A stretch of 62,311 bases of DNA, counting the filler, from Basidiobolus ranarum (Eukaryota): assembly GCA_040143965.1 (NCBI GenBank). It is 6 parts of 6 records of this genome, joined end to end, with 100 filler letters (N's around TTAATTAATTAA, not from the genome) between each part and the next. Parts side by side here need not be neighbours in the genome. Positions count along the whole stretch, not along the records: positions 31,229 to 41,529 come from JASJQH010007596.1; 5 more parts are not named here. One strand, given 5' to 3'. The stretch's first letter is position 1; each line of letters begins with the position of its first letter. Below the pieces are notes generated by a model that searched no databases, was not told the DNA's origin, and saw nothing but the letters and a program-made list of their open reading frames with translations. Below, one piece after another: positions 35,034 through 41,529 of the stretch. Both the position numbers and the translations under genes were made by a program.

Positions 35034-35566
35034 TCAGCTAGAAGGAGTTGGCGAGTCGTCAGCCCAAGATTTCTCAACTGTTTCTCGAACACGGCGAATA
35101 TATTCCTTACGGTTCTCTCGATAAAGTTGCGCAGCTTCGGCATTGGCCGGACTGTTGGGGTTTGGATCGTTAAATAGACTTTGAATAGACGTTAATATAG
35201 CAGAAACATCGTAGGTAGGGCTCCATCTGTTTTGAAGAATATCTAAGCACAATTCACCATTGGCATATACGTTGGGATGAAACATTTTGGAGATGAATTT
35301 AACAACAGGGGGTTTGTTTGGATAGCTTTCGTCAAACTGAAGGACAAGTTTAAAAGTACCATCTTCAAAGGGAGTGTCAGCTAAAAAAGAAACGGTAAGT
35401 ATATGACTACATAATATGGCAAGTAAATTTAAGTACTAGGGCCAAAAATAACTGCATTCCATATCATAATGTTATCGGAGCAAGGGGCACCAAACACACC
35501 ACCAGGGGGATCTTGTTGAAGGCGTTTGAAGTCCCTCATAAGACGACGACGAGATGGTGTAGACAT
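35034..35566 (-). CDS. RAD6: Ubiquitin-conjugating enzyme E2 Rad6/Ubc2, 2 exons (intron 35436-35381)
   Basis: [63 protein letters not shown]. Confidence 0.97.
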
Positions 35567-36651: not shown

Positions 36652-38695
36652 TTATTTGGATGGAGGAGGATAGGGTGCAGTAGCATTTTGAGGTGGGTAA
36701 GGAGAGTTGTTAGGAGGGGGATAGCTTGGTGAGCCACCAGAGTTTGGTGGGTATCCCGAAGGAGGATAGCCTGATTGATTTTGAGATGGATAGCCACTGC
36801 CAGGAGGATAACCTGTTCCAGTACGTGATGGGGGCTGAGCATTATTTGGTGGAGGATAAAGAGGGCTTTGAGATGAAGGGTATCCGCCTTGATTATTCTT
36901 AGGTGGATAACCAGAATTTAGCTGAGAAGGATATCCTGCGCCCTGGGGAGGGGGATATGCATTGGGTGGAGATGAAACTCGCATCGGTGGAGAGTGGATG
37001 GGAGAAGTAGTATTCAATGGAGGGTATACAGACCCTTGAGGAGGATATCCCGTCTGTGCGGGCTTTGGTGGATAGCCGGAGCCTCCCTGTGGAGGGTAAC
37101 CAGAGCCTCCTTGAGGTGGATACATCGAACCATGCTGTGGAGAGGATCCAGTTGGAGACGAGATACGGCCGGGTGTAGATTGTACTGGGGAAGTGGTTTT
37201 GGGTGGTGGATACATGCCAGTGGCAGGTGGGTAGCCTTGCTGAGGACCAGCACCAGGGCTAGAAAGAGGCAGATTATCAGGTGGGTATCCAGTCTGGGGT
37301 CTCTGAGGATATCCACTAGCTTGGGAGCCCTGAGATGGATATCCACCACTTGGCTTAGGAGGATAGGCACTAACTGGTGACGTAGGTGGATAACTGCCTG
37401 TTGGTGAAGTAGGTGGATAGTTGCCCGCAGGTGGATGACCTGAACCTTGGCTAGGAGGATAGCCCGAGCTTTGGTTAGGAGGATAGGCTGAGTTTTGGTT
37501 AGGAGGATAGGCTGAGTTTTGGTTAGGAGGATAGGCTGAGTTTTGGCTAGGAGGGTAGGCTGAGTTTTGACTAGGAGGGTAAGCTGAGTTTTGGCTGGGA
37601 GGATAGCCTGAATTTTGGTTAGGAGGATAACCAGTGTTAGGAGCGAAGTTATGCTGTGAATTGTAATTTTGGGCTCCTTGATTAAAGCCAGAGACACCAG
37701 TTGCTGAAGCATAGCCAGCAATAACCATATCTATTCCAAATTGTTGATATCTGACGCCGCTCAACTTTGACATAGGGCGATTCTATGATTCCGCATATGA
37801 AATAAAAATTACTTCCAAAATACTCATATTAAAGATTGATTTAAAATACCTACATCTCCATCTGCTACAGAAGACACCCCGGCACCACCAATATTTACGG
37901 GAGCGACGGTTATAATACAAAGGTCCACATAACCAGAAACTAAGAACTCTCGTATAATATTGGAACCGCCTTCAACCATAAGCTTGCGAATACCAAGTTC
38001 CTCAATTCTTCGAAGAACTTCAGGAATGGATAATTTATCACCTTGATTGGATACAACAAAAACTTGAACACCAGCAGCTTCAAGGGCCTATAGTTTAATC
38101 ATTAATACATTTTCAAGCAAATGAGGTAAATATAGTGAAGTACCTGGCGACGTTGAGGTGAATGATCAGGAGCACAGAAAACCCAAGGAAATTTCCCTCC
38201 ACCTTGAGAAGCACTTAATATCAAGTTCGACTTTAAAGGGAAACGAAGCTTGGAGTCAAGGATGATAGGTTGAGGTTGGACAGGTATTTCGTTAGGTTCT
38301 ACGATACGAGCTAGAAGTGGATGTTTTCAGATGAAAGGTGTATAGTAAAATGTTTGAATGTTAGGAATAAGTACCAGTCAAACGAGGGTCATCATTAAGT
38401 AATGTTCCAACTCCGATCAAAATACCATCATTTATTGTGCGTAGACTGTGTATAAAAGAGGATATATGTTTTAGTAAGTAAACAAGAGTCATCTATATAA
38501 AAAGATTATTTACCGATGGGTCACAGCCATTGACTCATTGCCACTCAAGGTAATCTGTTTACCGCCTGGACCAGCGATCTTGCTGTCTAAACTCTGCGCA
38601 TAGGTTAACGTGACATAAGGCTTCTTGTACGAATTCTCTTCAGAACGTTGGTAAATGGAGCTTAAGAAAGCTCTTGCCTCCTGAACACCAGACAT
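36652..38695 (-). CDS. RIB7: Rib7/RibD-C pyrimidine reductase (riboflavin biosynthesis) fused to a ~350-aa Tyr/Pro/Gly/Ser/Gln low-complexity tail; 5 exons, 594 aa
   Basis: Exons 38695-38514, 38445-38375, 38310-38144, 38087-37854, 37782-36652 (1785 nt, in frame). Motifs PYVTLTYAQSLDSKIA, HRLR..DGILIGVGTLLNDDPRLT, PQPIILDSKLR, LMVEGGSNII, VRYQQFGIDMVIAG, then repeats with no intervening stop. Confidence 0.9.
37438..37629 (-). repeat. Coding minisatellite: 8 x 24 bp encoding YPP(N/S)Q(N/S/G)S(A/G)
   Basis: Visible in DNA (GGAGGATAGGCTGAGTTTTGGTTA-like units on the plus strand) and protein. Confidence 0.95.
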
Positions 38696-39336: not shown

Positions 39337-41529
39337 TTACATGTCAAATCCATTGCTAAAAACAATCATAGCTCTAGCCAGGTTTCTAGAGAGAGCCAAT
39401 CTTACGATATCTAACTGGCGCTCTCTTTCATTTACAGTGATATCTTTTTCCGATGAGGTGGAGCTGGGCAAGAATTGCAGATAATAGTCTTTCTGGTGAG
39501 AGAGGGTAACTTCTTCAAGACATCTCATCAATTCGTAGGTATCGTCGACGTCGAATACAATTTCCTCTCCTTCGAGCAATGGGATCGCATCGACTAGCAA
39601 AACGGGCCAGAATTTTTTGGGCGCATACTCGCTTTCAAGCAGCTTCCGTAATAGTTTTCCAGCCTCCATGTACTTTCCAGCCTACACAATCAAACAAGAT
39701 CGGTCATCAATTGAGACTTACGGATATGAAGATTGGCCTGATGCATCCAATTAGATGTTTACCAACCTTGTAAAGTTCGTGGAAAGAACGATAATCAGCC
39801 AAAAACACCAAACGATCGCTGAACACCGCATCATACCCAATGCCGTCGATCAAGTCCATGCAAGACATATCCCCTAGAGAAGTGATATTAGACACTCAAC
39901 TTTTGAATGGCAACACAAGCTGACCGAAGATTACCATTTTTAAGGTACTCGTCAATAAGAATATCAGATATGGTGATAACCCGCTTAGGTTCACCAGCAT
40001 TGATATAATAAGCAATGGCTGCTGCATATTGACCTTGCTTTAACTTGCGACTGGCTAAAATCTAAATTGGGAATAGATGCTCAGTTCTCTGCGCAGATGG
40101 AATGTAGGAATAGGAGTCTTACTCTATTGATGGTGTTGAATACATGCTCAGAGCAATACTGAGCACAGAACTCCAATACTTTGCGTGCTTTCATCTCGTT
40201 TTCAATAGGAATATGCATGATATACTATATACACAATATGTATCCAGAAACGGTTAATATGTCTCTATAAAGCGATATTCGTACAACAGATTTACCTCCT
40301 CTATCGCTGATTTACCAATATTTGGACAAGCAGCCAGGTAATCTAGACCAACGTGCCACAAAGTACGATGTGGGATCAAAATTTCGGCGTAGCTAGCCAA
40401 GAAATACTCCCATACGTGGCTAACACTAAGGTTTGAATGGTATTTAGTTTAAACTTGAGAGGAATAAAGTAACAAAGGAGACATACTCAAAACGGAGATC
40501 ATTCAAATTTCCAGATTTGTAGAGAATGTCAGTCAAGTGAGCCACTAGCCACCAATCAATTCTACTGCATAATCTAATGGCTTTGCTCTTATCCTGTCGC
40601 ACCATAGCTAACAAGACACTATCTAAAATTTTGTCTTCGTCGACGGGATGACGGTCAACACAGGCTTCCACATAGTTTCTGGTAAATTGAGTAGTATAAG
40701 AGTGTGTGGTGATCGTAAATGATATTGCTCAACTTACTGTAGGCCTTCTGCCTCTACGGCAGTATATCAATAAAGCAACATAGCCCCTAAAGCGTCCTCC
40801 CATGATTCTGTAACATCCAGAATGGTCTCTTCATCACCAGACAAGATAGAGAATAATGTACAAAAGTTTACATTACGCTCATGCATAGCCAAGTGACTAA
40901 TAGAAAGAATGGTCGCTTTTTTAATCATCGATGTTGAAGTTGACGCAAAATTAATTATCAACAATGTTACCGGCATTCTTCTCTCCATATACGCCACTTC
41001 TTAGTAAATTCTCCATACGATCTATAACCTGAAGAACGAGGCATATTATCTAACAAATTCTGAGGTAAAATTGTTATTGTACTGTTGAAACAAAGTCTAT
41101 TACTATCAAAATCAACACTTACCATAGCAGAGTTGATCAACTCCTCACTTGAACCAGAAACTCTATCATTTAGCTGGTACTCCAAAAGTTTTCTGGCAGC
41201 TTGAACAAGTCCACGTACGACACACCTAAATTGAATTGAAGTTAGTAGTGTTTTAGTATCCGCTTTAAACTATATTAGTTTACTTGTTCAAATAGCTCCA
41301 GTATTGTGGATGTTGAGAGGGCTTCAATGCTTGTGCGATTTCCTCGCCTTCTTGTACCGAAGGGGCTATTAAACTAACATTAGTGACAGCAAAGAAAATG
41401 GCCCTCAAGGAGTTGGCATACCAGGGAAGTTGAAATTCAGCCACCGCATATAACTATCCATGATCGGGGCGTCGGGGATTATGGAAAGATAAAGAACCTC
41501 GCATCGATTGCAAATAGTGTAGATTCCTT
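39337..41529 (-). CDS. NUP85: Nucleoporin Nup85, multi-exon, 5'-truncated by the contig end
   Basis: HPQYWSYL..CVVRG; WEDALGAMLLY; DWWLVAHLTDIL; LWHVGLDYL; PKKFWPVLLVDAIPLLE..DTYELMRCLEEV..RLALSRNLARA. Confidence 0.88.

Follow-up and report, generated by a model that had tools for sequence, protein, structure and literature searches.

The RIB7 gene and its reductase domain

We analysed a window of 62,311 nucleotides from Basidiobolus ranarum (assembly GCA_040143965.1, six parts of the genome joined by filler). On its minus strand, at positions 38695-36652 in the part from JASJQH010007596.1, lies a gene for a predicted riboflavin-pathway reductase, Rib7, whose last exon runs on in frame from the reductase domain into a low-complexity tail of 352 codons. 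Exhaustive enumeration of GT..AG introns of 40-150 nucleotides (nt), with the database protein P0001 as the required product, gave a single solution, which reproduces the 594 amino acids (aa) of P0001 in five exons. The product is identical to the NCBI/UniRef predicted protein 2,5-diamino-6-(ribosylamino)-4(3H)-pyrimidinone 5'-phosphate reductase of B. ranarum. An earlier note on this DNA had proposed five exons, 594 aa and a 37854/37782 junction, and was correct on all three.

Exon 1 (38514-38695, minus strand, as are all features of the gene) starts with the ATG at 38695 and encodes an N-terminal helix and the start of the RibD_C domain, including YVTLTYAQSLD, which we take to be the substrate-site motif. 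Taken alone, it matched Pfam RibD_C with an E value of 4.8e-4 and 20.4 bits, below the cut-off of 24.1. Exon 2 (38375-38445) includes LRTINDGILIGVGTLLNDDPRLT and is followed by exon 3 (38144-38310) and by exon 4 (37854-38087), which carries the MVEGG motif, matches RibD_C on its own (E value of 1.6e-12) and ends in GAT at the donor GTAGGT. The four introns are 68, 64, 56 and 71 nt long, with the donors GTAAAT, GTACTT, GTACTT and GTAGGT and the acceptors CAG or TAG. Intron 4 (37783-37853; 71 nt) has a GC content of 0.24, and read-through into it would meet a stop after nine codons.

Exon 5 (37782-36652) begins with residue 219. Its first 24 codons (37711-37782), encoding NRPMSKLSGVRYQQFGIDMVIAGY, supply the two beta-strands with which the reductase domain ends and align to the Y..FG.D.V C-termini of homologues. 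Since these two strands are shared by 43 non-Basidiobolus homologues, exon 5 is indispensable to the domain. The 352 codons of the tail (36655-37710) follow in the same frame, as the earlier note had read them, up to a TAA stop codon (36652-36654) with a second TAA directly after it. A separate downstream gene for the tail was considered and rejected because the frame is unbroken from domain to tail.

Residues 1 to about 246 of P0001 are a complete, conventional RibD_C catalytic domain. Residues 26-238 match Pfam RibD_C (PF01872) over profile positions 1-196 of 197, with a score of 126.5 bits where the gathering score is 24.1; this bears out the identification as a Rib7-type RibD_C reductase. 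RibD_C was the sole family found in the Pfam scan of P0001, which returned no deaminase domain. P0001 has all 25 of the columns that are invariant in a 45-sequence Rib7 alignment of which it formed part (among them T29, A33, Q34, S35, D37, H60, R63, D103, M177, E179, G180, G181, T200, P203 and D236), and it has both the AQS.D and the M.EGG motifs of RibD_C reductases. P0001 thus shares a full-length domain and all invariant residues with fungal Rib7 and archaeal-type RibD_C reductases. Its best Protein Data Bank (PDB) matches were RibD/Rib7-type reductases over residues ~20-230, with E values of 2e-27 to 2e-19; solved RibD_C relatives, named as deposited, are 7lrh, 4ha7/4ha9, 6p8c, 9l1f and 2azn. 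An AlphaFold2 model built on the 45-sequence alignment gave blocks of residues 1-240 a mean predicted local distance difference test score (pLDDT) of 79-99, and the strands encoded by exon 5 (224-233 and 236-244) stood at a block pLDDT of 91-96.

By homology, the gene is therefore predicted to be the Basidiobolus RIB7, encoding an NADPH-dependent 2,5-diamino-6-ribosylamino-4(3H)-pyrimidinone 5'-phosphate reductase of riboflavin synthesis. In the predicted reaction, NADPH is used to reduce the ribosyl side chain ahead of deamination, which is the order of steps in fungi.

Composition and coding character of the tail

The tail (residues 243-594) is made largely of proline (92 residues, 26%), serine (55, 16%), glycine (43, 12%), tyrosine (34, 10%), glutamine (31), asparagine (29), alanine (20) and threonine (17). 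Charged residues and histidine are few, with 5 Lys, 4 Arg, 4 His and 1 Asp among its 352 residues, and Cys, Glu and Trp are absent. It is built on units of about eight residues ending in (G/A/S)YPP. We counted 32 YP[PS] and 25 [GAS]YP[PS] motifs, a fair match to the dozens of regularly spaced units, the single Asp and the missing Glu, Trp and Cys described earlier. Sixteen of the 33 Tyr-to-Tyr spacings are exactly eight residues, and the dominant pattern is YP-X6-YP.

Tandem Repeats Finder identified an array of 7.6 copies of a 24-bp unit with 89% matches (37447-37629), which encodes (S/N)QNS(A/G)YPP and is the youngest part of the tail, together with 2.1 copies of a 27-bp unit (37376-37433) encoding YPPTSPTGS/YPPTSPVSA. 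The tail lengthens and shortens through slippage of these 24- to 27-bp units. Its remainder consists of degenerate repeats with interspersed, less repetitive Ser/Pro/Thr-rich stretches. Six-frame translation of the 62-kb window showed no other YPP-dense stretch.

In the AlphaFold2 model, the tail attaches directly after the last beta-strand of the domain, and it is predicted to be intrinsically disordered: residues 249-594 almost all had a pLDDT below 50 and had no secondary structure. The Pfam scan of the tail matched no family. An ESM Atlas search with residues 246-594 returned no usable feature match, its structural rows having template modelling (TM) scores of 0.11-0.17, which are meaningless for a disordered model. 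By composition and pLDDT, the tail has the disordered, aromatic-rich, low-charge profile of phase-separating low-complexity domains of the annexin A11/galectin-3 type.

Statistically, the tail has the character of translated sequence. When its 1056 nt were shuffled 5000 times as mononucleotides, no shuffle was free of stops in the tail frame, and in the natural sequence the three antisense frames have 17-38 stops, one of the other sense frames has 20 and the remaining sense frame has 2. At the first, second and third codon positions, the tail has GC contents of 0.58/0.65/0.31, compared with 0.55/0.42/0.33 for the domain. The third-position value of 0.31 indicates that the AT-rich background (the window has a GC content of 0.39) is followed in exactly the coding frame. 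Proline codon preference in the tail is CCT>CCA>CCC>>CCG, like that of the domain. The 32 YP[PS] motifs are written in 13 codon combinations, so that the motif has been kept at the amino-acid level, more than as a copied DNA word. Nor does the tail resemble intron sequence: the four real introns have GC contents of 0.24-0.31, whereas the tail stays at or above 0.375 in every 56-nt window, and the only six GT..AG candidates for a hidden intron in the tail all share the weak donor GTGGAT and have GC contents of 0.50-0.56.

The frame with 2 stops is open for 238 codons (37014-37730, minus strand) and would encode a Leu/Thr/Ile/His-rich sequence, which we read as a side effect of the repeats and not as a second product.

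A second copy and the distribution of the tail

B. ranarum has a second Rib7 protein under a different NCBI accession, P0002, of 470 aa. It is 81% identical to P0001 over 242 domain columns, and the alignment runs unbroken through the tail to the end of P0002, with tail identity at 45% of columns (59% ungapped). The two tails share the junction GYAS.T and YPPTSPT units, as well as a nonrepeat block, PKTTSPVQS.PGR.SSP...HGS.YPPQG.SGYPPQG.SGYPP. YP-X6-YP occurs 16 times in P0001 and 8 times in P0002. Untranslated DNA would not have held to one frame and one eight-residue period in two copies this diverged. The union of domain and tail is confirmed as an observation far beyond chance, and the architecture itself is probably real. 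The P0002 model ends abruptly inside a repeat (...GYPPQGGSG) and may be cut short.

The two Rib7 models of Basidiobolus meristosporus, P0127 and P0128, are 230 and 234 aa long and 89% and 78% identical to P0001. Both are without the last two conserved strands as well as the tail and end after ...GDV in unrelated residues. They were probably cut off by read-through into the equivalent of intron 4 (37783-37853), and the tail may be unannotated in this species. Being defective at the C-terminal end, the models decide nothing for or against a tail in B. meristosporus.

In a tree built on the first 217 residues of Rib7 proteins, the four Basidiobolus proteins formed one clade (support of 100/99), in which P0002 grouped with one of the B. 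meristosporus proteins (88/83). P0001 was closest to the other (88.9% identity), but that fork was not resolved. The grouping of P0002 with a B. meristosporus protein fits, with moderate support, a duplication that preceded the species split; the tail would then predate both events. A preprint on 19 Basidiobolus genomes makes no mention of duplication, ploidy, paralogues or RNA-seq.

Outside these proteins, Rib7 is short. A search for relatives shorter than 326 aa gave 392 matches, and the fungal proteins in the list of 120 have ~184-314 aa, as the earlier note had expected of fungal Rib7. Listed relatives of ~184-314 aa end no more than about 10 residues past the FG.D.V strand, whereas P0001 continues for 352 residues. 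Long relatives, of 326-1040 aa, numbered 286 at an E value of ≤0.001; among the 120 listed, only P0001 and P0002 had the tail. HMMER, run with the full protein against 1.84 billion representative proteins, returned 11,399 matches at an E value of ≤0.001, and P0002 alone among the best 150 was matched beyond query residue ~246. The tail is thus as unusual among Rib7 proteins as had been supposed.

The long relatives are of another kind. Going by Pfam labels, nearly all of the 120 listed combine RibD_C with GTP cyclohydrolase II (PF00925); in such fused proteins, mostly from prokaryote-like records, RibD_C is joined to folded enzyme domains, whereas the partner in P0001 is a disordered tail. None of six extended relatives that were read whole (P0010 included) had a Pro/Tyr repeat tail; several of the six look merged or mis-spliced, and one has a GTP cyclohydrolase II-like C-terminus. 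From these comparisons, the tail is probably restricted to Basidiobolus.

Low-complexity extensions on ordinary enzymes are familiar in eukaryotes. We found no description, in the literature searched, of a Rib7 with a disordered, low-complexity, proline-rich or phase-separating C-terminal extension. The claim that no Rib7 of this architecture had been described fits that literature and has to be qualified in one respect, in that the architecture is already public as a predicted protein record.

A search with the last exon, in which the 8000 candidates sharing most words with it were scored among proteins of 206-658 aa, found eight proteins at an E value of ≤0.001. Two were from B. ranarum, both of them Rib7, and no other B. 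ranarum protein in that length range, other riboflavin enzymes included, was seen with the tail. The nearest matches outside Rib7 were an EF-hand protein (P0007), a C2 protein (P0008) and a DM9 protein (P0003), all with GYPP repeats. The repeat arm is N-terminal in P0003 and P0007 and follows the C2 domain in P0008, whereas in Rib7 it is C-terminal to the enzyme; the folded domains of these three are binding domains, whereas Rib7 is a housekeeping biosynthetic enzyme with a much longer arm. P0003, from a Logan assembly, has 280 aa, comprising ~190 residues of GYPP-type repeats much like those of the tail and a DM9 domain (PF11901), and shares 56% identity with a part of the tail.

These look-alikes make it reasonable to place the tail, as the earlier note did, in the compositional class of GYPP-rich arms of Ca2+- and membrane-associated proteins. 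The arms of annexin A7/A11, penta-EF-hand, copine/C2 and galectin-3 proteins share with it a Pro/Gly/Tyr-rich composition and short YP repeats. The likeness to annexin- and galectin-3-type arms is one of composition and need not reflect homology, and the Rib7 tail is without defined ALG-2 motifs. In the PDB search, the tail also weakly matched the low-complexity C-terminal ends of the trypanosomatid ribosomal protein eS21 (6az1_Y, 8a3w_SY and 5t2a_AR; E values of 9e-7 to 1e-5). We treated this match as compositional, the eS21 end presumably being a further case in which a housekeeping protein has gained a low-complexity extension in one lineage.

Interpretation of the tail

The explanation that we favor, and consider probable, is that this is a real RIB7 with an in-frame disordered tail that is translated, noncatalytic and serves as an arm altering the self-association, solubility or location of the enzyme. 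The tail would have arisen in the Basidiobolus lineage before P0001 and P0002 separated and would be translated as part of the enzyme with no role in catalysis. Its composition suggests a flexible, nearly uncharged, multivalent arm in which ~34 tyrosine "stickers" sit on proline-rich polar spacers. Such an arm would favor weak self-association or the binding of partners, with effects on how the enzyme assembles, how soluble it is or where it is located, and selection would act mainly on the composition and length of the tail and less on its exact sequence.

Several points weigh against this explanation, and some of them speak for another, that the tail is an artefact of the gene model (an alternative 3' end, a missed intron or an assembly misjoin) and that the real protein has ~245-260 aa. 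P0001 and P0002 are both computational predictions, and the model is known from sequence alone; neither B. meristosporus model has the tail; and one alternative sense frame has only 2 stops, so that open frames are easier to keep in these low-complexity repeats than in ordinary sequence. An artefact is nevertheless unlikely. A protein without exon 5 would be without the last two strands of the domain, common to the 43 non-Basidiobolus homologues, and the B. meristosporus models have faults of their own at the C-terminus. The 352 stop-free codons, with no counterpart in 5000 shuffles, have a third-position GC content and codon choice that fit a coding frame, and the tail offers no intron-like segment or good donor. 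P0002 counts against a local misjoin, being collinear with P0001 both at the junction (...GYAS.T...) and along the tail.

The functional arm has a serious rival in an extension that was driven by slippage and is nearly neutral, even though we judge this rival distinctly less probable. The tail would be translated as functionally neutral baggage after the stop had shifted downstream or a slippage-prone repeat had expanded, and it would be tolerated because it is disordered and uncharged. The tail has diverged much faster than the domain (45% against 81% identity, with indels of up to 33 residues), a pattern that very weak selection on its sequence, or none, would allow; the 89% identity of the 24-bp array points to recent slippage; repeat units have been homogenized within each copy (NQNSAYPP in P0001 versus NNSSGYPP in P0002); and no other lineage among the matches listed has such a tail. 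We sought relatives in metagenome DNA from which the ratio of nonsynonymous to synonymous substitutions (dN/dS) might be estimated, and the scans with the last exon and with the alignment of the two copies gave 111 and 221 pattern matches, none of which was confirmed by tblastn. Neutrality sits less well with the frame and YPP periodicity being kept in two copies that differ at 19% of domain residues, with the good conservation of the nonrepeat block between them and with the synonymous variation beneath a constant motif, which points to selection at the peptide level. Weighing further against an arm with a function of its own, the step to self-association or partner binding is one that we infer from composition.

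A more specific role, put forward in the earlier note, is that of a docking arm for penta-EF-hand (Pef1/ALG-2) or ESCRT-linked factors or of a metabolon scaffold for riboflavin enzymes. The sequence class is right, in that annexins A7 and A11 are described as partners of ALG-2 through proline-rich regions with "1-like" motifs in PMC5037681, and the sequences most like the tail belong to EF-hand and C2 proteins. The motifs of ALG-2 ligands are given, in PMC4346919, PMC3397542 and PMC5037681, as type 1, PPYP/PXYP-X4-YP, and type 2, PXPGF. Neither P0001 nor P0002 has a type 1 motif, the nearest approach being one loose PxYP-X6-YP in P0001 only, and neither has PXPGF, even with F, W or Y allowed at the last position. 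PPxY and LPxY, which form the PY motif of WW-domain (Rsp5/Nedd4) ligands, were likewise absent from both copies. PMC5037681 also states that ALG-2-type motifs were not found in yeast and invertebrate ALIX and Sec31A homologues and that yeast Pef1p binds Sec31p without Ca2+. That no other riboflavin enzyme was seen with the tail in the search with the last exon argues weakly against co-assembly through like-with-like tails. Docking and the metabolon scaffold are therefore not borne out, nor is the condensate-forming role that the earlier note also proposed, and we regard the docking or scaffold account of the tail as very improbable. A secreted or cell-wall proline-rich protein was likewise considered and not adopted.

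Returning to the altered-association arm that we favor, its boldest form is that the tail makes a soluble housekeeping reductase self-associating, so that, in the coenocytic cells of Basidiobolus, riboflavin synthesis would be concentrated or sequestered in Tyr/Pro-driven assemblies, and that this has been selected in both copies since before the species diverged. Phase separation has been reported for the N-terminal domain of galectin-3 (PMC7060198) and for the low-complexity domain of annexin A11 (PMC6890474). For Rib7, we put this form forward as a long shot.

Should the tail prove to be translated and functional, it would provide a clean natural case of a disordered sticker-and-spacer arm on a single-domain biosynthetic enzyme, with a tail-less ancestral state in every other fungus available for comparison. 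Were the self-associating reading true, it would further be a natural case of an enzyme of primary metabolism regulated via a lineage-specific low-complexity arm. If the tail is neutral, it would illustrate that an essential enzyme can grow to more than twice its length through slippage-prone repeats and pay no visible price. Either outcome leaves knowledge of riboflavin synthesis itself unchanged. There is also a problem of annotation, as cut-short B. meristosporus models would make comparisons of proteomes wrongly call the tail species specific.

The gene is flanked on the same strand by two others. Upstream, a gene at 39337-41269 (minus strand) has exons that match nucleoporin Nup85; the match at 39337-39681 is significant (E value of 1.9e-15), and that at 40967-41269 is weaker, at 1.2e-4 and 21.3 bits, just below the Pfam cut-off of 22.1. 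Downstream, ~1.2 kb past the Rib7 stop, the next gene encodes a ubiquitin-conjugating E2 (35034-35435, minus strand; Pfam UQ_con, E value of 3e-42).

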